Sequence record: MN850610.1
Direction: 5' to 3' (one strand)
Origin: Escherichia phage Andreotti
DNA: 64,000 bases
Shown: piece after piece, positions 44,505-53,406 of the stretch
How the letters are laid out: each line of letters opens with the position of its first letter
How positions within the stretch are numbered: position 1 is the stretch's first letter
Made by a program: the position numbers and the translations under genes
The notes under the pieces: model-generated
The model's database searches: none
Told to the model about the DNA's origin: nothing
What the model saw: the letters and a program-made list of their open reading frames with translations, nothing else

Positions 44505-46121
44505 TCAACGTCTAAGCCCCTCATATGGGTTTCCTCTCACTAAGTCTGTGTGAGCACCCATTGATGGTGGCTTGAATAATTTAACTTCGTTAAGACTGTT
44601 GAAAGCATCACTGGTAGCATCCACTTGGTCATCTTTAGTTTTACCATCACCACAAAAACCTTCAAGTTCTTGAAAGTAAGCTTCATTCCAACTACCTCTC
44701 AAGACTTTTACAAGTCCAGCTTCAGAAGCAGCAGAAAATCCCGCAAATCGGGTAACTTTATCTTTATTTGTTGGTTTGGCTCTTGCACGATAGCCTTTCT
44801 CGGCAAGTTTCCTGATGAGGGATGTTGCGTAGGATTTACCAGCAGCGCCTGGGTCTTGAGGGATAAAAATACCAGTTCGCTTACCGTCACTTTCAGCAGT
44901 CAAATTAATTTGTGTTTCGACTCCAGAGGGTCTATCTCTAAATCTTACTACATCAATGATATAATAGCAACCGTCTTTTTTAGATTTACCCATCTTAACA
45001 CCTGCTGTCCAGTCTGGATTAGGGTTAACCTCAGATGGTAAAGTTGCTGCTAAGTCCCATGCTCTAACATCAAATACATCTTCTGGGAGTGAATCAACAA
45101 TTTCACACCATTGTCTTTGCCAATAGTTTGAACCTTCTGCACGAGCCTTCCAGTTACCGAAACGAAGTCTTGCAACGTTTACAGGAGTGTTGTTTTCAAG
45201 CTTACCGCGATACTTTGGTTCTAAGAAGTCAAGAATTGGGTTATCATCAATCGTACCAGAGATGAAGGTGTATGTTTGAGGAATCTCAAGAGGGAACATT
45301 TCAAGAATCTTGTCTCTCTCCCAATCAGAAACCATCACACCATCGTTCATTACATACCAACGAATACGACCACACTTTTCAGGGTCTGGATAACCTTCTT
45401 CATCTAAGAATGGTTCTACCCAATCATAAATAAAATGGTCTCTGTCTGGGTTCATGGAAATCTTCATGTATGAATCGCCTTCAGCACCAGAACGTAGACG
45501 GGTTTGTAGGTATGAAATCTGTGAAGCAGAGAAGTGTGTACCTTCGTCAAAGTAAATAGCTGAGTATTCAATACCCTGATGACCTTCAGCGTGCTTTTCA
45601 AGTTCTAGGTAGGTAAACTTGATAGTTGCCCCAGAAGGGAATGTAATAGTCATCTTCTGCTCGTGAGGAACCCCACCAAACTTACCAAATAGTTTCTTTG
45701 CAGCAGGCCATAAACCACCTTGTAACTGTGTTGTATTTCGACGGAAATATACAGCATTATAGTTAGGGTCTTCAATAAACCTTAAAGAGTCCATTAACAA
45801 TGCGGCAGTTTTACCAGCACCAGCAGCACCACCATAGAGAACCAAGTCAGCATTAGTATTTAAAAAGACCTCTTGAGAACCCGGTTGAGGGGCTACATAG
45901 TTCTTATCAGTCATCAATTTAAAGATGAGGCGAACTTGGTCTGGTGTGTATCTTAATAAAGTCAGAATTTGAGTTGGAAGGAATTTAGAGGGGTCTTTAC
46001 CGAATGATTTAATAATTTCTTTTACTTCATCAGAAAGCCCCAACTCTCCAGCTAGGACTTTCCTAACATCTTCCACTCGCTTCTGCTTAACAGCATTTAA
46101 GTCCATTAAGCACCTCCGCAA
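44505..46121 (-). CDS. terminase large subunit
   Basis: Walker A LYGGAAGAGKTAAL near N-terminus, C-terminal nuclease-like acidic residues; 538 aa; first large gene of virion operon. Confidence 0.85.
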   Translation of the reverse strand: MRRCLMDLNAVKQKRVEDVRKVLAGELGLSDEVKEIIKSFGKDPSKFLPTQILTLLRYTPDQVRLIFKLMTDKNYVAPQPGSQEVFLNTNADLVLYGGAAGAGKTAALLMDSLRFIEDPNYNAVYFRRNTTQLQGGLWPAAKKLFGKFGGVPHEQKMTITFPSGATIKFTYLELEKHAEGHQGIEYSAIYFDEGTHFSASQISYLQTRLRSGAEGDSYMKISMNPDRDHFIYDWVEPFLDEEGYPDPEKCGRIRWYVMNDGVMVSDWERDKILEMFPLEIPQTYTFISGTIDDNPILDFLEPKYRGKLENNTPVNVARLRFGNWKARAEGSNYWQRQWCEIVDSLPEDVFDVRAWDLAATLPSEVNPNPDWTAGVKMGKSKKDGCYYIIDVVRFRDRPSGVETQINLTAESDGKRTGIFIPQDPGAAGKSYATSLIRKLAEKGYRARAKPTNKDKVTRFAGFSAASEAGLVKVLRGSWNEAYFQELEGFCGDGKTKDDQVDATSDAFNSLNEVKLFKPPSMGAHTDLVRGNPYEGLRR

Positions 46122-46127
46122 ATAGAA

Positions 46128-46328
46128 TTATTCAGAGTCTGTAGCAGTCTCTTCTTTCTTAACTTCGAACTTTGCATCAACAGCATCAAGAAGTGCATCC
46201 ATAGATGCTTCTTTAATATCAATACCTGTTGCTACAGACAATCTGTCTGCAATTGCCATGATAGTATTCTGCATAAATTCTAGCTTTTTGTTAGCTTCAT
46301 AAAGTTCTTTATAAACGGTCTCACTCAT
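46128..46328 (-). CDS. hypothetical small protein upstream of terminase (66 aa)
   Basis: ORF track; too small to call small terminase confidently. Confidence 0.4.
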   Translation of the reverse strand: MSETVYKELYEANKKLEFMQNTIMAIADRLSVATGIDIKEASMDALLDAVDAKFEVKKEETATDSE

Positions 46329-46453
46329 TATGTTTTCTCCAAATAATTAACCATGTTTCTCCTTAAAAAAGACGGCACGGAGACCGTCAAGGAGAAACCA
46401 CAATGTACGTCAGAGACATACTGTATAAGTCTTCTTATAAAGTATAACTCTGT

Positions 46454-46514
46454 AAAAAAGCCCTGTCTAAAAATACTCTTCGGTAGCGAAAGGAAGAATA
46501 CTTATAGCAGGGCA
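46454..46514 (-). terminator. extended imperfect hairpin after tRNA array (candidate terminator)
   Basis: GCCCTG...CAGGGC long stem with A-run on plus side. Confidence 0.3.
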
Positions 46515-46540
46515 TTATTATTATTTTAATTGAGAGAGAG

Positions 46541-46616
46541 TAAAATAACTTGGAGAATCCGAAGGGACTCGAACCCTTATAAACCTGTTTTGCAGACAGG
46601 CACATATCCATTTCTG
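46541..46616 (-). tRNA. tRNA-Cys (anticodon GCA)
   Basis: manual cloverleaf: 7-bp acceptor GAATCCG/CGGATTC, T-arm AAGGG-TTCGAGT-CCCTT, anticodon loop CUGCAAA, CCA encoded. Confidence 0.75.
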
Positions 46617-46620
46617 TCAC

Positions 46621-46713
46621 GGATTCAAATTGGAGGAAGATACCAGACTTGAACTGGTACACCGATTTCTCAGCTACTGGCAGTTTAGCAAACTGCTCCC
46701 TTACCTTTTAGGG
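46621..46713 (-). tRNA. tRNA-Ser (anticodon GCU), class II with long variable arm
   Basis: 93 nt; acceptor GGAAGAT/ATCTTCC, anticodon stem GCAGT/ACTGC, loop UUGCUAA, T-loop TTCAAGT. Confidence 0.7.
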
Positions 46714-46724
46714 TTAATCTTCCA

Positions 46725-47459
46725 TTATTTCTGTAATGCGCTCTTCATTTCTGGTGTTGCAATAGTGTCAATCACACCAGTTTTACAAGCATCGTCAAAC
46801 CAGTCTGGTAAGATACCTGCTAAGAACCCATTGATATTCGTTTTAAGGTACTCTGCAATAAGGGCAGCTTCTTCTTCAATCATCTGCACAACTTCATCTG
46901 CATAAGCTGTAATCTTTGAAATACCTTCATTAATCTTACTGACAGCTTGGTTAGCTAAATCAGAAACAGTATCAAGACCCTTATCAATAGCATCTTGTAA
47001 GTCACTTAACACACCATTAACACTATCTAGTGTACTGTTCATCATGTCAATAGCTTTTTGACCATACTCTGTAGCAACACCCATGATACCACTGAATGGT
47101 GTACAACCAACTTGTTCTCCTGCTGCACCCATAACATTGGAATACCCCTTTGCTACCTGCATACGTGATGAAAACTCATCAATAGATTTTTGACCGTAGT
47201 CTGTCAGAGTTTTAGTAGTTGCTGTAGTGCTTGTAAGGCTTGTTGTAAAGCTGTTTAGAAGGACTGTTGTAAGTCCAGCAGCAACAAGTTTCTCCTTCAT
47301 TGTAGGGTCTGTTACAGAACTAATAGAGCTTACAAGTGATGTAGAAGCAGCTACGGTTCCACCGAGAACTGCTGCACCAGTAATAAGCGGGTTAGAGAAC
47401 CCTTTACCAGTTTTTAAGAGATTAAAAATCTCCTTACCTTGTTCTGTCATCTCTTTCAT
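46725..47459 (-). CDS. hypothetical protein (244 aa) embedded in tRNA array
   Basis: track ORF 46725-47522 trimmed to ATG 47459 (MKEMTEQ...) so it does not overlap tRNA-Phe; Ser/Thr/Ala-rich. Confidence 0.55.
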   Translation of the reverse strand: MKEMTEQGKEIFNLLKTGKGFSNPLITGAAVLGGTVAASTSLVSSISSVTDPTMKEKLVAAGLTTVLLNSFTTSLTSTTATTKTLTDYGQKSIDEFSSRMQVAKGYSNVMGAAGEQVGCTPFSGIMGVATEYGQKAIDMMNSTLDSVNGVLSDLQDAIDKGLDTVSDLANQAVSKINEGISKITAYADEVVQMIEEEAALIAEYLKTNINGFLAGILPDWFDDACKTGVIDTIATPEMKSALQK

Positions 47460-47475
47460 TAAGCACCTTTGAAAT

Positions 47476-47552
47476 TGGTAGTCCAGTGGGATTTGAACCC
47501 TCTTCTCATGTTTTTCAGACACGCGCTTTAACCATATAAGCTACTTGGACTA
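47476..47552 (-). tRNA. tRNA-Phe (anticodon GAA), tentative
   Basis: anticodon arm CGTGT-CUGAAAA-ACATG; T-loop TTCAAAT with one stem mismatch; ends approximate. Confidence 0.55.
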
Positions 47553-47557
47553 TAAAT

Positions 47558-47633
47558 TGGGGTGACCTACGGGATTTGAACCCGTATAGACCATGTTCAC
47601 AGCATGGGTCATTACCGTTTATGATAAGGCCAC
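47558..47633 (-). tRNA. tRNA-His (anticodon GUG)
   Basis: acceptor with one G-U, T-arm ACGGG-TTCAAAT-CCCGT, anticodon stem CCATG/CATGG, CCA encoded. Confidence 0.7.
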
Positions 47634-47664
47634 ATTTAAGGACTCTCGCAAGAATCCTTAGAAG

Positions 47665-47740
47665 TGGCAGCGGCATAAGGATTTGAACCTTAATAGGACA
47701 GCTTCAGAGGCTGCTGCATTGCCAGTTATGCTATACCGCT
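47665..47740 (-). tRNA. tRNA-Gln (anticodon CUG)
   Basis: T-arm TAAGG-TTCAAAT-CCTTA; anticodon loop CUCUGAA; CCA encoded. Confidence 0.65.
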
Positions 47741-47745
47741 AAATT

Positions 47746-47824
47746 TGGTACTCCATATCGGATTCGAACCGATACATAACACAGATTTTAAGTCTGGCCT
47801 CTCTGCCAATTGGAGTAATGGAGC
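47746..47824 (-). tRNA. tRNA with Leu anticodon UAA, short variable region (atypical)
   Basis: T-arm ATCGG-TTCGAAT-CCGAT, anticodon loop CUUAAAA, D-loop AAUUGGCAG, A73, CCA encoded, 79 nt. Confidence 0.55.
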
Positions 47825-47826
47825 AT

Positions 47827-47902
47827 TGGCGGGGGATGTTGGAATTGAACCAACTTCTTCGATTTCAAAGACCGAGGTTTTAACCTTGTAAACTAATCCC
47901 CT
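47827..47902 (-). tRNA. tRNA-Gln (anticodon UUG)
   Basis: T-arm GTTGG-TTCAATT-CCAAC, anticodon loop CUUUGAA; 1-72 mismatch. Confidence 0.6.
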
Positions 47903-47910
47903 TTAAATCT

Positions 47911-48468
47911 TTACTTTCTCAGTGGATGAATAAAGAATGCCAACATAACTCTTTCCCTTGAGAATGCTCTTTCTTCTGGGACAACACTTTTTAGTTTCCA
48001 TCCAACATAAATTCTCCAGTAAAACTGTTTACCAAAGATTTTAATTGACGGAATAAAAGCGAATAATCCCCAAGCATTGTTGTTCCACATTAGGAGATAA
48101 CCTGTCTGATTATCTTCAGGGTCAGAACTTACGTTGATATTACCTTTCCACTTAGTAACATCTTTTACATCTCTTCCTAATACATGGTAAGAGAAGTTAT
48201 AAGCTTTGTTTCTCCAGAGCCATCCAACTCTCTGCATATAAACACCGAGCTTGCCAATCTTTCTAATCTTAGCCCATCTCTCAACGTGGCCTTTATCACC
48301 ATCAATCGGGTTGTCATAGGTCTCCATCCATCTGAATCCAAAAGGTAGATGCCCTTTCTTCTCACTGTAGAATGGAACTACGAAAGGTGCTAAGATGACT
48401 GCTAGGGTTGCTGCAAATGGTTCTAGTAAAGCTAGGAAAATCCATGAAGCATACTTCAAATATCTCAT
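47911..48468 (-). CDS. hypothetical membrane protein (185 aa) within tRNA array
   Basis: N-terminal hydrophobic segment WIFLALLEPFAATLAVILAPFVVPF; AAGAGG RBS. Confidence 0.55.
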   Translation of the reverse strand: MRYLKYASWIFLALLEPFAATLAVILAPFVVPFYSEKKGHLPFGFRWMETYDNPIDGDKGHVERWAKIRKIGKLGVYMQRVGWLWRNKAYNFSYHVLGRDVKDVTKWKGNINVSSDPEDNQTGYLLMWNNNAWGLFAFIPSIKIFGKQFYWRIYVGWKLKSVVPEERAFSRERVMLAFFIHPLRK

Positions 48469-48486
48469 CTAAATAGCCTCTTAAAA

Positions 48487-48564
48487 TTGGTGTTCCAAGA
48501 CGGATTCGAACCGTCACTAATACAAGGTTTGAGCTTGCATCCTCTGCCAATTGGGATACTGGAA
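48487..48564 (-). tRNA. tRNA with Leu anticodon CAA, short variable region (atypical)
   Basis: T-arm GACGG-TTCGAAT-CCGTC, anticodon arm GCAAG-CUCAAAC-CUUGU, D-loop AAUUGGCAG, A73. Confidence 0.55.
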
Positions 48565-48565
48565 C

Positions 48566-48640
48566 ATGGTACTCACTAAAGGACTTGAACCTTTTTCTTC
48601 ATCTTGTAAGGGTGATGTTTTACCATATAAACTAAGCGAG
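48566..48640 (-). tRNA. tRNA-Val (anticodon UAC)
   Basis: T-arm AAAGG-TTCAAGT-CCTTT; anticodon stem 5 bp incl. G-U, loop CUUACAA. Confidence 0.7.
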
Positions 48641-48736
48641 TGTGAAAGAGGTCTGAAGTTGTGCCGCTAACTCAACTCCGTGGAATTTGTTACGGTCTTC
48701 AGTTGACACCAGCGGTCTTTCACTTGACCTCTGAAT

Positions 48737-48813
48737 TGGTGCTGCTCACAGGACTCGAACCTGCATTTCCATCCTTACAAGGGATGTGTAATAGCCAATT
48801 ATACGAAAGCAGC
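48737..48813 (-). tRNA. tRNA-Thr (anticodon UGU)
   Basis: T-loop TTCGAGT; anticodon stem 5 bp, loop CUUGUAA. Confidence 0.7.
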
Positions 48814-48819
48814 ATTGTT

Positions 48820-48894
48820 TGGAGCATCCAGAGGGAATCGAACCCTCAACCTCAGTTTGGAAGACTGTAATTTTCCCGTTTAAACTATGGATGC
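48820..48894 (-). tRNA. tRNA-Gly (anticodon UCC)
   Basis: perfect acceptor, T-arm GAGGG-TTCGATT-CCCTC, anticodon loop CUUCCAA. Confidence 0.7.
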
Positions 48895-48900
48895 ACTAAT

Positions 48901-48976
48901 TGGTGGAGTCACTGAGAATTGAACTCAGTTCCCAAGTTTGCAAAACTCGAATTTTAACCATATAAACTATGACCCC
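48901..48976 (-). tRNA. tRNA-Ala (anticodon UGC)
   Basis: G3-U70 pair in acceptor (Ala identity element); T-arm CTGAG-TTCAATT-CTCAG; anticodon loop UUUGCAA. Confidence 0.7.
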
Positions 48977-48982
48977 ATTGTT

Positions 48983-49058
48983 TGGTACAGGTGGAGGGAA
49001 TTGAACCCATCGTCTTACTGATTAAGAGTCAGCCGCATAACCATTTTGCTACACCTGC
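48983..49058 (-). tRNA. tRNA-Lys (anticodon CUU), tentative
   Basis: T-loop TTCAATT with one stem mismatch; anticodon loop CUCUUAA. Confidence 0.55.
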
Positions 49059-49065
49059 ATTAATT

Positions 49066-49143
49066 TGGTAGGAGACAAGGGATTCGAACCCTCAAACATC
49101 TCGTTCTAAGCGAGATAGGTTTACCAATTACCGTCAATCTCCC
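49066..49143 (-). tRNA. tRNA with Leu anticodon UAG, short variable region (atypical)
   Basis: anticodon arm TCTCG-CUUAGAA-CGAGA perfect; T-loop TTCGAAT; D-loop AAUUGGUAA; A73. Confidence 0.55.
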
Positions 49144-49400
49144 ATTAAATCTTTTTAGAGAACTCCTAAGAACCTAAGCAACAAGGTTCCACAACAAGCT
49201 GTAATAACCTTAGAAGCCCTCTAAAAAGACCTAAAAAGGTCTTTGCATAGTCTTGTTTAATCCGGTGACTAGAACCTTTGGAGAGCTTGATATTATCTCT
49301 TCTCCGTGACACCTACTAGGTGTTTTATCAGTGTGTACGACAATACACGAGGGATACCAAAGCAACATCCGAATGAAGCTTGGCTTTAAATCTTATTAGG

Positions 49401-49488
49401 CGGTAAGTAAAGGAGTCGAACCCTCACCGTATCTCTACAGTGGCAACTGTTTTCAAGACAGTTTGGCTACCATTAGCCGCTACCTACC
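49401..49488 (-). tRNA. tRNA-Ser (anticodon UGA), class II
   Basis: 88 nt; 6-bp anticodon stem AACTGT/ACAGTT, loop CUUGAAA; 19-nt variable arm; T-loop TTCGACT; CCA not encoded. Confidence 0.65.
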
Positions 49489-49501
49489 CCTAATAAGATT
49501 T

Positions 49502-49584
49502 TGGCATGGGACGGAGGAGTTGAACCCCTTTGAAACGGTGTTGGAAGCCGTTGCTCATGCCTTAGAGTCTTAACATCGTCCCAT
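49502..49584 (-). tRNA. tRNA-Trp (anticodon CCA) with enlarged D region
   Basis: perfect acceptor ATGGGAC/GTCCCAT, anticodon arm ACGGC-UUCCAAC-ACCGU; about 7 extra nt between acceptor and anticodon stem. Confidence 0.5.
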
Positions 49585-49724
49585 ACTATAATTCGAAGCT
49601 TACCGTATTATCTCAACACTGTAAAGCCCCTTCTCAGATTATTTACATGTTCTGGAAAACATGAGATACAGACCACCTCCCTACAGGAAGACCCGCTAAG
49701 GTCGTCTAAGTAATCTGCTAACTA

Positions 49725-49801
49725 ATTGGCACACCCTACAGGATTCGAACCTGTAACTAACGATTTAGAAGACCGTTGCTCTATCCAATTGAACTAAGGG
49801 T
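49725..49801 (-). tRNA. tRNA-Arg (anticodon UCU)
   Basis: T-arm ACAGG-TTCGAAT-CCTGT; anticodon loop CUUCUAA. Confidence 0.65.
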
Positions 49802-50049
49802 GCATTAATCTTTAAAGACTCTCTTAGAAAGCCCTTAAAGATGCCCACCTTATTAATCATACCGTGGGCGAGTACGCCAAATTCTTTGATGAGGGATTGG
49901 AAGACCTCACTGGTGTTTAGCCTATCAAGCTACTGCCAGAAAAACATTGTCGTTTGCATTTATTTTAAATTTGCAAAATAGACGCTACGCAACGAAAACT
50001 AAGGGTACTATAAAGTAGTCACATCTCAATGTCAACAACTTTATTGAAT

Positions 50050-50124
50050 TTGGTTGTAGGTGAGGGTATCGAACCCTCTTCTAACGGTTATCAGCCGTTT
50101 GCATTACCATTTATGCTAACCCAC
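50050..50124 (-). tRNA. tRNA-Ile (anticodon GAU)
   Basis: T-arm GAGGG-TTCGATA-CCCTC; perfect 5-bp anticodon stem, loop CUGAUAA. Confidence 0.75.
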
Positions 50125-50126
50125 AA

Positions 50127-50203
50127 TTGGAGGTTCAGATGGGATTCGAACCCACATTCATAGGGCTTATGAGACCCTTGCATTACCTTATCTGCGACTG
50201 AAC
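50127..50203 (-). tRNA. tRNA-Met (anticodon CAU), elongator-type
   Basis: perfect acceptor GGTTCAG/CTGAACC; T-loop TTCGAAT; anticodon loop CUCAUAA. Confidence 0.65.
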
Positions 50204-50207
50204 CATT

Positions 50208-50283
50208 TTGGTAGAAGTGGAGGGATTCGAACCCATCGCCTGTCAGATTAAAAGTCTGCCGCATCACCATTCTGCTACACTTC
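50208..50283 (-). tRNA. tRNA-Lys (anticodon UUU)
   Basis: T-loop TTCGAAT; anticodon loop CUUUUAA. Confidence 0.6.
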
Positions 50284-50293
50284 CATTAAATTA

Positions 50294-50440
50294 TCTTTGT
50301 AGATAAGCTACCCAGACTTGCTTAAGGTCTGTAGCGATGTGCCTTTATGGGTTTAAAATCTAGAATTTACCCTTTCACCCTTTGTGGTCGCATACTCACA
50401 GGTAAGCTTAATAACTTATCTACAAAGATAATTACCAGAC
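50294..50440 (-). repeat. structured non-coding element bounded by a perfect 17-bp inverted repeat
   Basis: TTATCTTTGTAGATAAG (50294-50310) and its exact reverse complement (50424-50440) enclose 113 nt containing nested inverted repeat GCTACCCAGAC / GTCTGTAGC. Confidence 0.6.
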
Positions 50441-50713
50441 CGTTATTTATCATCTTAAGTGCTACCATTACACCAACTCGACATCTGCCGAGTGAAGGAA
50501 TCGAACCTTCGCCTTTTCTTTACCGAGAAATAGATTGTTTAAGTTTTGCTGTAAACGGTCTTCTGTAAATTTGTTGAGCCAGACCAAGTTTTAAATTTTT
50601 CAAAATTGAATTGGCTTGAAATTTTAAGTAACTTGCTGAATTTGGTCTTCTGCTCCTTTAAAGGATACTCGTAAGAACCCTTTAAGGGAGGGGCTAAATA
50701 GCCCTCTCAAAAT

Positions 50714-50789
50714 TGGCGAGGTATGCGAGAATCGAACTCGCGGCTCAGGAGAGACAGTCCCGTATTTTGCCCATCTAAACTAATACCCC
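50714..50789 (-). tRNA. tRNA-Asp (anticodon GUC), tentative
   Basis: acceptor GGGGTAT/ATACCTC, T-arm GCGAG-TTCGATT-CTCGC; anticodon loop CUGUCUC has U at position 37. Confidence 0.55.
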
Positions 50790-50795
50790 AAAAAT

Positions 50796-51224
50796 CTATG
50801 TACCATTTCTTAGGTACTTCTCTTTACGCCTTGCTGGATTGTAGTGCTTGCGTCCTTCTGCGTTTTTAGCAAGTCTGCAAGGTTCACACCTACAACCTCT
50901 TCTATAACCAGACACTGTGCCATGTTTAATTGGTGTGTATTTCCTATCACCAATCTGGGCTGGCCTAGTTGCTTTTGAATTACATTGTATGTGGCTGTAA
51001 GATATATTGTCAAGTGAGAAGAAAAGCTCTTTTGCATTCTCTTCATGTCTCCAAGGAACTTTATGTTCTATAGAGAAATCAACTCTGGACATTTCTTTTC
51101 CACAATGGTGACACTTATTCTGTCCAGTTTTACAAACCAAATCAAAGAGTAAATCTTTAACAAGCCTGTTCTGGGCTGTTCCTAAGCTCATACCAAGTTG
51201 TGACTTGTAAACTTCATTCTTCAT
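50796..51224 (-). CDS. HNH endonuclease (putative homing endonuclease) inside tRNA array
   Basis: CHHCGKEMSRVDFSIEHKVPWRHEEN...H (HNH-type His/Asn spacing); C-terminal GYRRGCRCEPCR. Confidence 0.7.
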   Translation of the reverse strand: MKNEVYKSQLGMSLGTAQNRLVKDLLFDLVCKTGQNKCHHCGKEMSRVDFSIEHKVPWRHEENAKELFFSLDNISYSHIQCNSKATRPAQIGDRKYTPIKHGTVSGYRRGCRCEPCRLAKNAEGRKHYNPARRKEKYLRNGT

Positions 51225-51246
51225 AGTATCAACATCTTATTAAAAT

Positions 51247-51331
51247 TGGTGCGCCCATCTGGACTCGAACCAGAAACCTTGAAAGGGACAGTTTTACAGA
51301 CTGCTGCATTGACCATCTCTGCCATGAACGC
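51247..51331 (-). tRNA. tRNA-Tyr (anticodon GUA), class II
   Basis: 85 nt; T-arm TCTGG-TTCGAGT-CCAGA; anticodon loop CUGUAAA; hairpin variable arm; CCA encoded. Confidence 0.65.
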
Positions 51332-51341
51332 ATTTAAATTT

Positions 51342-51418
51342 TGGCGGTTAGTCAGGGATTCGAACCCTGTGCCATTCGCTTAACAGGCGACCGCACATAC
51401 CTTATGTGCTTCCTAACC
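51342..51418 (-). tRNA. tRNA-Asn (anticodon GUU)
   Basis: T-arm CAGGG-TTCGAAT-CCCTG; anticodon loop CUGUUAA. Confidence 0.65.
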
Positions 51419-51495
51419 TTAATACATTGCCAGACCGTGTTTTTTCTTTTATCCGCAAAAAGTATTTTGTTGCTGTAAACGGTCTTCTGTAAATT

Positions 51496-51571
51496 TGGAG
51501 GCGGGTGCAGGAGTCGAACCTGCCGATACCATGCTAATGAGACATGTGAGACGCCCTTTCTCTATACCCGC
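51496..51571 (-). tRNA. second CAU-anticodon tRNA (Met, or Ile2 via lysidine), irregular acceptor
   Basis: T-arm GCAGG-TTCGACT-CCTGC; anticodon loop CUCAUUA; acceptor pairs only with a 1-nt register shift. Confidence 0.45.
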
Positions 51572-51663
51572 AATTCTTAATGACCAGACCAAATCTCTTC
51601 TTTGTCCGATTTACCTTCAGATGAATAAGATTAAGTTTGCTGTAATTGGTCTTCTGTCAAAAC

Positions 51664-51741
51664 TGGCGTTCCAGAAGGGATTTGAACCCTCAGATATCCA
51701 CTTTGAAAGAGTGGTGACTATACCATTTTGTCTACTGGAAC
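51664..51741 (-). tRNA. tRNA-Glu (anticodon UUC)
   Basis: perfect acceptor; T-loop TTCAAAT; perfect 5-bp anticodon stem, loop CUUUCAA. Confidence 0.7.
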
Positions 51742-51748
51742 ATTAATT

Positions 51749-51825
51749 TGGTCTCTGTTGGAGGATTTGAACCTCCGGCCTTACCGCCCCAAACGGAACG
51801 CTCTACCAAGCTGAGCTAAACAGAG
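51749..51825 (-). tRNA. tRNA-Pro (anticodon UGG)
   Basis: perfect acceptor CTCTGTT/AACAGAG, T-arm GGAGG-TTCAAAT-CCTCC, anticodon loop UUUGGGG (G37). Confidence 0.7.
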
Positions 51826-51990
51826 ATAAACTTTTCAAACTCTATGTAACCACTTTAACATTATTTTTTAGTGGTTGTCAAGAACTTTTTTAAAATATTT
51901 TTCAGTATCTTAGAAAAGCTCTCGTTTCGTCTCTATGTAGAACATATTAAAGGGTATCAAACACATTGTCAATACCCTTTTTAAAACTTT

Positions 51991-53406
51991 TTACCAGATA
52001 TAACGGTCAATCATTACTGCTTTGAGCATTACACTGATTGGGTCAAACTTCTCACCACCAAGCAGAGCTTTTAAAGTGGCTGGAGAGAACCCTGATACCA
52101 TTGCTACACCGTTATCCTTAACAGATACTTCGCAAGTACCATTACGGTTTGCTAAGTACCAGAATACCAGTTGTGGCATCTCATATCCAGCTTTTTTGTA
52201 CTTACTCTGAATTGCTTCAAAGTTTGTACGTCCGTTAGCTCCATCAACCTGATTGAACTCCATATCGGAGAAGATGATAAGCTTACTTGGCATATCTTTC
52301 TGAGTCAAGTTGTTTCTTTTACCTGTTTCAAGAATGCGGTCAAAAGCTGCTTGTAAGTTAGTTGAGCCATATTCAACGTGTCGCATCACCTGACGATGAC
52401 GGTTTCGTAAATCACCACTCAGTTCGATGAAGTGAGGGTTTGTTGAATAAACCATCAACTCATTCTTAAAGCAACCTGTATTGCGTTCTGCTACATACAA
52501 GGCAAGTGATACACCAATATCAAGAGCAGTAATGGAGCCAAAATTCACCCAAGACATTGAGCTTGAAACATCAGACATACATAGAATGTTTTCACCCTCT
52601 GCCATCCAGTTTGGTAGTGCTTTCCACTGCTCATTAGCAACATCTGCATTACCATACTTAACAGATTTAATCACATCGTATGGGTAAACAGCACCAGCGT
52701 TAATCTTAGTCTCACCTTTTGATAAGGACTCGATGTAAGCTTTGTAACGTTCCCCATCTTTACGGTTAAAGAGTTTTTGGTAACGTGCAGCAGCAAGTGA
52801 AGGAATCTTACTGTAGTCAATCTTACCAAACTCATTAGCAGAGATTTTTTGCTCAACTGTATCAGAGAGTGCAGACAACAGTGTGCGGTACTCTTTCTCA
52901 CTCAAGTTGGCAAATTTGCAGAAACGTTTTACAAACTGCTTGTGACGTGGTTTGACTCGTGGTAACCACTTAGCTGCCAAACCTGCTGTTGCAGGGTCTA
53001 GTAATGCTGCTTCTAAATGTTTGAAGGCATCTGTCTCGAAACGAGTACCTACGAAGATTTTGAAGTCATCAAAACGACCAAGTTCTGCAATCTTATCCAT
53101 AATGCGAAGAACCTGTGCAGGCTCTAAAACTTTGTCTTCAATCGCTTGAAGCAAAACAGTTCTGAAGGCTTTACGCTCACCCATACCTTCTCGTACATCT
53201 CGCATATGCAGTAAAATACGAACTGAAACATCAACATCCTCACGCAAAGCTTTGTAGAACAGGTCTGGTAAGATTTCTACATTGCTACGACTTGAACCAG
53301 CAGCTTTGTAAAAGTCTACAAGAGCAGACATTGATGAAGTATGGTTTACAGCACCATTTTCAGTTCGACCTGCATGAAGGTGCGCATGTTTAAATAACTC
53401 GCTCAT
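51991..53406 (-). CDS. von Willebrand factor A (vWA) domain protein with N-terminal helical domain (471 aa)
   Basis: MIDAS-type DxSxS motif in LCMSDVSSSM followed by alternating hydrophobic strands; about 250-aa helical N-terminal region; directly upstream of tRNA array. Confidence 0.6.
   Translation of the reverse strand: MSELFKHAHLHAGRTENGAVNHTSSMSALVDFYKAAGSSRSNVEILPDLFYKALREDVDVSVRILLHMRDVREGMGERKAFRTVLLQAIEDKVLEPAQVLRIMDKIAELGRFDDFKIFVGTRFETDAFKHLEAALLDPATAGLAAKWLPRVKPRHKQFVKRFCKFANLSEKEYRTLLSALSDTVEQKISANEFGKIDYSKIPSLAAARYQKLFNRKDGERYKAYIESLSKGETKINAGAVYPYDVIKSVKYGNADVANEQWKALPNWMAEGENILCMSDVSSSMSWVNFGSITALDIGVSLALYVAERNTGCFKNELMVYSTNPHFIELSGDLRNRHRQVMRHVEYGSTNLQAAFDRILETGKRNNLTQKDMPSKLIIFSDMEFNQVDGANGRTNFEAIQSKYKKAGYEMPQLVFWYLANRNGTCEVSVKDNGVAMVSGFSPATLKALLGGEKFDPISVMLKAVMIDRYIW

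Follow-up and report, generated by a model that had tools for sequence, protein, structure and literature searches.

A free-standing HNH endonuclease gene and its linked tRNA-Asp as a probable mobile cassette in the tRNA array of a FelixO1-like phage

Introduction

Why does a phage tRNA array hold a nuclease-like gene between two complete tRNA genes, and does that gene have any part in the way the array changes? The window examined here, a stretch of 64,000 nucleotides from Escherichia phage Andreotti (MN850610.1), belongs to a FelixO1-like myovirus (Ounavirinae) of Felixounavirus-like type, and 25 tRNA genes on its minus strand (~46.5-51.8 kb) form the array that hosts the gene. A previous sequence-only reading of this DNA had described a 142-aa HNH protein between tRNA-Asp and tRNA-Tyr and had offered two accounts of its presence: that endonucleases inside tRNA clusters may drive array rearrangement, or that the gene had simply homed into a permissive spacer. 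Phage tRNA arrays are now seen as anti-defence equipment, and this locus is a natural example of their diversification. Surveys of viral tRNA clusters mention HNH genes in general terms only (PMC6409571), comparisons of Felixounavirus genomes do not describe the cassette discussed below (PMC8300805), and a search of the literature found no description of a tRNA association, a linked tRNA allele or a cassette for the protein family concerned (PHROG 23251). The comparisons assembled here indicate that the gene is probably a free-standing, intron-less HNH homing endonuclease, which together with the downstream tRNA-Asp would form a mobile cassette of ~0.53 kb within the phage tRNA operon.

Results

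Position of the gene in the tRNA array

The open reading frame was located between the two tRNA genes named previously, and both of these neighbours are complete. The features of the locus are as follows.

50796..51224, minus strand: HNH endonuclease gene, 142 codons plus stop (open reading frame, PHROG 23251, structural model, fold matches and dN/dS).
50714..50789, minus strand: tRNA-Asp* (GTC), hereafter the linked tRNA-Asp (ARAGORN; Rfam 52.8 bits, threshold 29; alignment against the empty-site allele).
51247..51331, minus strand: tRNA-Tyr (GTA), of a third origin (Rfam 53.3 bits, same threshold; allele comparisons).
51225..51246, minus strand: 22-nt spacer from tRNA-Tyr to the ATG, part of the putative cassette (100% identical in phage mistaenkt, missing at empty sites).
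50713..51255, minus strand: tract in common with mistaenkt, including the last 9 nt of tRNA-Tyr (difference map and segment identities).

The frame begins with ATG 22 nt past the 3' end of tRNA-Tyr, its 142-aa product has the sequence quoted in the earlier reading, and its stop codon lies 6 nt before the 5' end of tRNA-Asp. A strong Shine-Dalgarno sequence is absent from the 22-nt spacer upstream of the ATG. Searched against Rfam, positions 46000-52200 gave no group I intron at E<=0.01; with both flanking tRNAs complete and no such intron present, an intron-encoded origin was ruled out. Deposited 173-aa versions of the protein (radambza_51, L003 2094-2615; SeKF_63, L089 2098-2619; protein P0002) start inside tRNA-Tyr. 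The 142-aa form is favoured because of the family alignment and a stop codon upstream in the window, and the longer annotations overlapping tRNA-Tyr are probably too long.

It should be noted that the frame and its surroundings hold several further sequence features. At 50800-50817 (minus strand) a 5-bp hairpin and a T-rich run cover the last codons of the frame (…YLRNGT and the stop), just before the linked tRNA-Asp; the peptide encoded there is conserved family-wide, and any role at the RNA level is thus ambiguous. A strong sigma-70-like match inside the frame (51013->50984, 11/12) was considered as a promoter for the linked tRNA-Asp and rejected as incidental, because it lies on the codons of a conserved motif, LDNISYSH, is not kept in the radambza allele, and promoter-like sites in this region are no commoner than in shuffled sequences. 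Two more open reading frames, of 265 and 185 aa, occupy other large gaps in the array (46725-47522 and 47911-48468, minus strand).

Fold and conserved residues of the protein

The frame is a real, selected gene encoding an HNH-fold protein with predicted nuclease activity. All 22 copies among the Ounavirinae are intact at 142 codons, and pairwise dN/dS among eight alleles from related phages ranges from 0.03 to 0.25. The window protein is a full-length member of PHROG 23251 (E=6.3e-68, residues 4-142 on profile positions 1-142 of 142), whose name, 'HNH endonuclease', is an automatic assignment only, and it has 63 homologues in a large protein collection, one of them 100% identical. Family homologues in Felixounavirus, Vequintavirinae, Lahexavirus and Pseudomonas phages are annotated as 'putative HNH homing endonuclease'. 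The window protein itself is without a Pfam match at E<=1, and neither Pfam nor NCBIfam yielded a usable match for it or for its C-terminal 55 aa; PF01844 is matched at E<=0.01 by 34 of 41 family members (best 2.2e-6), and several homologues carry precomputed PF01844 matches. Searches of the PDB by sequence, with the single protein or with a profile, stayed at chance level (a yeast glucanosyltransferase, a zinc finger, and DraIII at E=0.74, the weak DraIII alignment spanning the HNH motif region). An AlphaFold2 model built from the alignment has a mean pLDDT of 90.3, with strands at residues 50-54 and 74-78 and a helix at 79-86. Its best PDB matches in Foldseek are the Gme HNH nicking endonuclease (4h9d; prob 1.00, E=6.6e-3), Cas9 HNH domains and ColE7/E9, and its matches in BFVD are phage HNH proteins throughout. 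The family matches to PF01844 and the fold matches to HNH nucleases agree with the original assignment of the protein, in which three segments can be distinguished.

51126..51224, minus strand: N-terminal segment of two helices, residues 1-33 (helices modelled at 2-10 and 14-33; QLGM..TA.NRLVKDLLF conserved).
50964..51125, minus strand: HNH (beta-beta-alpha-metal) core, residues 34-87 (invariant columns, model and Foldseek).
50841..50927, minus strand: C-terminal module H101-GT-x2-GY-x2-GC111-R-C113-x2-C116 and the next helix, residues ~100-128 (repeat scan).

The motifs quoted earlier (C38-H-H-C41-G, H54, H78 and G106-YRRGCRCEPCR117) were all found in place, and the HNH reading of these residues stands, but the catalytic set had to be corrected. 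Invariant in the 41-sequence alignment are C38, C41, H54, W58, S77, H78, C81 and N82, with N73 conserved in at least 90%, so that the core of the family follows the pattern C-x2-C…H…N…H-x2-C-N. Laid over the model, C38-x2-C41 precedes a strand (50-54) that ends on H54, and N73 precedes a second strand (74-78) and the helix at 79-86, with H78-x2-C81-N82. The alignment identifies H54, N73 and N82 as the putative catalytic set, an H-N-N variant with Asn in the last position, and H78 more likely belongs to a zinc site composed of C38, C41, H78 and C81. Within the N-terminal segment T16, A17, L21 and L26 are invariant and other positions nearly so; the segment is possibly helix-turn-helix-like and DNA-binding.

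The C-terminal Cys motif pointed out previously is not peculiar to this protein. Residues ~100-128 (HGTVSGYRRGCRCEPCRLA…) are a single copy of a widespread repeat, which a full HMMER scan recovered from 1,128 representative proteins at E<=0.001, the best matches carrying 2-8 tandem copies and the unit in example proteins reading (D)PRHGTxxGYxxGCRCxxC. Some of the proteins with this repeat are fused to Endonuclease_7 (Endonuclease VII) or HTH domains, and the module is without a Pfam or NCBIfam model. As part of the HNH family in the 41-sequence alignment is missing it, the module is an accessory one; it is probably a nucleic-acid-binding zinc knuckle.

Presence, absence and exchange at the Tyr-Asp junction

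Approximately 259 phage records share this part of the array, and 22 of these (~8%) encode the HNH protein, in keeping with the view of an accessory, mobile gene; at least 165 records have an intact empty Tyr-Asp junction. In empty-site phages (LinBro, KPS64 and Felix O1) the gap from tRNA-Tyr to tRNA-Asp is 5-6 nt, and the site is also empty in the published description of Felix O1 (PMC3185647, Table 1). Arrays with and without the gene have collinear flanks. Compared with the empty-site phage LinBro, identity is 98-100% on both flanks, with 0-3 differences per 50 nt, and only the Asp-HNH-Tyr block (50714-51331) differs.

These counts bear directly on the suggestion that the protein is a packaging-associated HNH protein (a terminase cofactor, HK97-like), or else an enzyme acting on RNA, for instance in tRNA processing, whose place in the array would serve co-expression. 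Such a role would suit the tight packing of the frame between tRNAs. A terminase-large-subunit-like frame ~4.7 kb away (44505-46121) points the same way, as does a PHROG family named 'terminase small subunit', which is matched weakly and in part (E=9e-5). The gene is not adjacent to the terminase, however, and its absence from ~90% of close relatives, Felix O1 included, is unlike that of an essential factor, while its distribution and its movement from genus to genus match a mobile element. A terminase-cofactor role was ruled out on the record counts given above, and we consider this family of explanations highly improbable.

Against mistaenkt, a Suspvirus, the window has 4 differences in 543 nt (50713-51255), a tract that runs from the final 9 nt of tRNA-Tyr through the 22-nt spacer and the HNH gene to the linked tRNA-Asp; the mistaenkt backbone is ~85% identical in the neighbouring gene, and nearby spacers have 5-28 differences per 50 nt. 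On this comparison, 50713..51255 appears to be the unit that was recently exchanged, and exchanged between genera. The window tRNA-Tyr is 98.9% identical to that of Mooglevirus KPS64, where the site is empty, and ~55% identical to other Felixounavirus tRNA-Tyr genes, so the locus reads as a three-way mosaic with its breakpoints at the ends of tRNA genes. Other Felixounaviruses have, at this site, HNH alleles of 75-92% protein identity within flanks that are 98-99% identical. These alleles are synonymously saturated relative to the window allele (pS ~0.78), but none is disrupted and purifying selection acts on all of them. Because saturated HNH alleles sit between near-identical flanks, the pattern fits either repeated invasion or long persistence with homogenised flanks. 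A repeat search found no duplication of the cassette in the window.

A linked tRNA-Asp allele

The proposal that the gene homed into a permissive spacer is an oversimplification. What appears to move is the spacer, the HNH gene and a xenologous tRNA-Asp, with the resident tRNA-Asp replaced. Relative to the empty-site gene, the linked tRNA-Asp differs in the acceptor, anticodon and T stems and is conserved in its loops; it is re-coded in every stem and has the anticodon arm ACTGTCTCT, with T at position 37. Homology with empty sites resumes directly past its 3' CCA. A search with this allele returned exactly the same 22 HNH-positive Ounavirinae records and none of the HNH-negative Ounavirinae records. 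The next-best matches are tRNA-Asp genes of Vequintavirinae-type phages, which argues that the linked gene is a xenologue and not a mutated resident copy.

The linkage between the re-coded tRNA-Asp and the HNH gene is perfect in the Ounavirinae, and the pattern is repeated in Mydovirus (Vequintavirinae). Mydo and VIK251 have tRNA-Asn, an HNH homologue (~50% protein identity) and tRNA-Asp in succession; in P8734 the HNH gene is absent and tRNA-Asn and tRNA-Asp are 7 nt apart, and KpS11 is likewise without the gene. The tRNA-Asp of the occupied Mydo and VIK251 arrays is again re-coded in its stems, and all four phages become identical again exactly at the tRNA-Asp 3' end (CGCCAATTTGATATG…). As with tRNA-Tyr in the window, the tRNA-Asn upstream of the HNH gene is hypervariable in Mydovirus. 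It has a length of 89 nt in VIK251 (L097 964-1052) and 75 nt in Mydo (L007 1890-1964), and as both differ from P8734 there are three alleles inside one genus. The tRNA-Asp genes downstream of the HNH genes of Mydo and locus L073 have no special similarity to the linked tRNA-Asp of the window, and the linkage is therefore a property of individual lineages and not of the family as a whole.

Family habitat and mosaicism of the array

The habitat of the family was surveyed in 80 IMG/VR loci together with the phage loci of KP12, DU_PP_I, Mydo and LAh_9 and the window, with proteins de-replicated at 90% identity to give 62 clusters. More than half of the clusters (36/62) have a same-strand tRNA within 100 nt, and in 19 of the 62 the stop codon is at most 12 nt from the 5' end of the next tRNA (0-12 nt spacing). 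Several loci contain one tRNA only (ARAGORN, ~2.5-kb flanks), with the gene 34-134 nt downstream of it. Members that are >60% identical adjoin different tRNAs, for example tRNA-Glu and tRNA-Ile in one case and tRNA-Asn and tRNA-Asp in another, and two family copies occur in one array in L016, L073 and L080. The homologues in KP12, DU_PP_I, Mydo and LAh_9 all reside within tRNA arrays, the frameshifted KP12 copy giving a picture of a decaying gene, and one large clade of the family has no tRNA nearby. Because of the 36 clusters close to a tRNA and the variety of their neighbours, the habitat of the family is best described as inter-tRNA spacers in general and not one fixed site.

Other parts of the array are also variable. 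The genes for tRNA-Arg (49727-49803), Ile-Met-Lys (50051-50284) and Thr..Leu (48737-49143) have strongly divergent alleles among close relatives (52-99% identity for tRNA-Arg), and the spacers between the divergent genes are 95-100% identical, so that the usual relation, with genes conserved and spacers drifting, is inverted. This suggests that allele exchange at tRNA genes is modular and array-wide. The idea that the nuclease may drive array rearrangement fits the allele mosaicism of the two flanking tRNAs and of other parts of the array; general recombination at conserved tRNA motifs could also exchange alleles and leave breakpoints at tRNA ends without a nuclease.

The latter process can be extended to a reading in which the nuclease is irrelevant to the mosaicism. 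Alleles would then be exchanged by ordinary recombination, homologous or based on microhomology, at conserved stretches of the tRNAs, and the HNH gene would be cargo that is passively carried along, or a remnant that has ceased to home, with a fortuitous linkage to one tRNA-Asp allele. The divergent tRNA-Arg and the Ile-Met-Lys block (82-100% identical) fit this reading, lying among near-identical spacers with no adjacent HNH gene in the window, as do the exchange of the window tRNA-Tyr independently of the cassette and the lack of any tRNA-Tyr in P54. It is difficult to reconcile, however, with a gene that is intact in every Ounavirinae copy and retains its low dN/dS in eight alleles despite synonymous saturation, or with an association between family and tRNA that extends across unrelated phage groups and includes single-tRNA loci. 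The combination of gene and re-coded tRNA is replicated in the Mydoviruses, and a copy in decay looks otherwise, as the KP12 frameshift illustrates. A passive role is thus judged unlikely.

Several additional observations concern the array itself. Unrelated HNH genes lie elsewhere in related arrays (mistaenkt, L002 1-288; P54, L091 541-888), near tRNA-Ser or replacing the Thr-Gly-Ala-Lys-Leu block, and because they occupy different positions the Ounavirinae array can be said to have several endonuclease insertion sites. A 28-nt element, TTGCTGTAAACGGTCTTCTGTAAATTTG, is present in the larger array spacers as exact copies at 50546-50573 and 51470-51497 and as degenerate copies at 50633-50660 and 51637-51664. 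One of the copies lies directly against the tRNA-Met gene at 51496-51572, at its 3' end, and overlaps a weak promoter-like match, and the element may be a processing or regulatory site. This tRNA-Met(CAT), called by ARAGORN, is below the E<=0.01 cut-off against Rfam tRNA and has a T at position 37 (CTCATTA) that is conserved in Ounavirinae loci; its Felix O1 equivalent has a low Cove score of 28.9 (PMC3185647). In the 430-nt spacer between tRNA-Lys and tRNA-Asp, where no tRNA was called, a T-arm-like sequence (GAAGGAATCGAACCTTC, 50480-50510) may be the remnant of a decayed tRNA.

The tRNA-Asp anticodon arm as a candidate target

Positions 31-39 were compared for every tRNA-Asp in all fetched loci. 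Each tRNA-Asp directly downstream of a family HNH gene is non-canonical, with the arm ACTGTCTCT, ATTGTCTCT, ACTGTCTAT, ATTGTCGAT or ATTGTCAAT, these arms coming from approximately four lineages (the Ounavirinae cassette, Mydovirus, L016 and L073). Where the HNH gene is absent, at six loci that include T5, the anticodon arm is CCTGTCACG throughout. Arrays in which the HNH gene stands beside another tRNA are mixed, and some of these also have a non-canonical tRNA-Asp. It is a matter of speculation that the anticodon arm CCTGTCACG of the tRNA-Asp gene might be the core of the target, and from these alignments it is a candidate for that role.

A purine occupies position 37 in 505 of the 524 background tRNAs in the fetched loci. 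A general occurrence of a pyrimidine at this position downstream of family members was considered and ruled out, as it is confined to tRNA-Asp. Genes for tRNA-Asp that combine U37 with an A31-U39 closing pair (loop CTGTCTC or CTGTCTA) are found repeatedly, in several arrays of unrelated phages (window 50714-50789, L007 2419-2495, L038, L039 and L053), all of which contain the HNH family. The T37/U37 change could instead be an adaptation at the RNA level against anticodon nucleases; coliphage copies of the tRNAs targeted by colicin E5 often have changes in the anticodon loop (PMC10264068).

A benefit to the phage, instead of or besides selfishness, could likewise explain why the gene is kept, whether through exclusion of competitors by cutting in the tRNA region, SegB-like tRNA amplification under a tRNA-targeting defence, or carriage of a defence-resistant tRNA-Asp (U37). 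The homologues of SegB are enriched near tRNAs, and SegB itself can promote amplification of tRNA-Tyr by which T6 escapes Septu (PMC13096335). The window gene adjoins a tRNA-Tyr and is under strong purifying selection, its linked tRNA-Asp has an unusual U37 with like alleles in other arrays, and loop changes are frequent in the coliphage copies of colicin E5-targeted tRNAs. Carriage by ~8% of related phages would nevertheless make any such benefit conditional, and the window shows no sign that the region has been amplified. Overall, a benefit of this kind seems quite unlikely to account for the locus.

Discussion

Proposed course of homing

The evidence is best accommodated by a homing cassette, for which a course of events can be proposed. 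The HNH gene would be co-transcribed with the tRNAs, probably at low expression. During a mixed infection the enzyme would nick or cut the tRNA-Tyr/tRNA-Asp region of a cassette-free phage, and the break would be repaired from the cassette-bearing genome, such that the HNH gene and the linked tRNA-Asp are copied in and the resident tRNA-Asp is overwritten. The outcome of such a course is what is seen in the genomes: the cassette is present in some relatives and absent from others, alleles have been replaced with the breakpoints falling at tRNA ends, and the cassette has crossed from one genus to another. The incoming tRNA-Asp would retain tRNA function without the target sequence, and the donor would consequently be immune; the linkage is observed, and the immunity is presumed from it. 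The candidate target core CCTGTCACG, which is intact wherever there is no family HNH gene and altered directly downstream of one, would on this speculative account be the sequence that is lost. Homing is read here from comparative patterns alone, and from the same patterns we infer the activity, the cleavage site and the mechanism of immunity.

It is also conceivable, though rather doubtful, that the HNH lineage and the re-coded tRNA constitute a co-mobile 'nuclease plus immune tRNA' module. In such a module the DNA of the canonical tRNA-Asp would be cut and an uncuttable working allele substituted, the replacement (U37, A31-U39) might also resist host anticodon nucleases, and the module would act as a general driver of xenologous tRNA replacement and mosaicism. 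Should this be true, a selfish module would deliver an anti-defence tRNA. For the homing cassette itself, the importance of the locus is that a nuclease gene and an alternative tRNA allele appear to move together, with breakpoints at the level of the base pair, across genus boundaries and with a replicate in a second subfamily.

Comparison with known systems

The closest parallel is SegB, a free-standing GIY-YIG endonuclease encoded in the tRNA cluster of T4; by cutting tRNA genes at the T-psi-C motif it brings about preferential inheritance of its own gene and of adjacent tRNA genes (PMC2330249). Like SegB, the present gene stands free between tRNA genes, is absent from collinear relatives and carries neighbouring tRNAs along; in both cases the homologues are enriched next to tRNAs of many isotypes, and the DNA of tRNA genes is the likely target. 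The two differ in fold and are unrelated, SegB being GIY-YIG and the present family HNH; no Pfam or PHROG match to a GIY-YIG domain was found for the window protein, whose fold and motifs are HNH. The activity of SegB, its 27-bp site (with the T-psi-C motif) and marker exclusion are experimental, whereas the present family is known by sequence. The hallmark of the present cassette, unlike SegB, is that the resident tRNA is replaced by a re-coded xenologue of the same isotype.

A second parallel is found in the F-TflI/II/IV enzymes of T5 (hegA, hegC, hegD), which are described as HNH site-specific nicking endonucleases of the T5 tRNA region (Akulenko et al. 2004, as cited in PMC2330249). These are also HNH enzymes encoded between tRNA genes, and hegC and hegD both run on into the following tRNA gene at their 3' ends, comparable to the 0-12 nt between stop codon and tRNA in the present family. 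They differ in length (193-227 aa) and in their accessory domains. Alignment of the family profile with hhalign gave probabilities of 0.6% for hegC, 4.3% for hegD and 4.1% for hegA, no T5-like phages are among the tblastn matches, and homology to the T5 tRNA-region enzymes was ruled out by hhalign (at most 4.3%). Other free-standing endonucleases of the T-even phages, SegF, SegG and MobE, are reported to home without introns (references in PMC2330249 and PMC2790892). They resemble the present case in having a gene between conserved genes and in the co-conversion of flanks, and their donor immunity by target differences is what is presumed for the present cassette; they differ in that their targets lie in protein-coding genes, whereas here the flanking and replaced genes are tRNAs and a whole alternative tRNA is co-converted.

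The concept of a nuclease gene homing among tRNA genes is therefore known already from SegB and F-Tfl, and by analogy with these systems the present locus would be a new instance from another HNH family. If so, it widens the SegB paradigm from GIY-YIG enzymes to an unrelated and uncharacterised HNH family, PHROG 23251.
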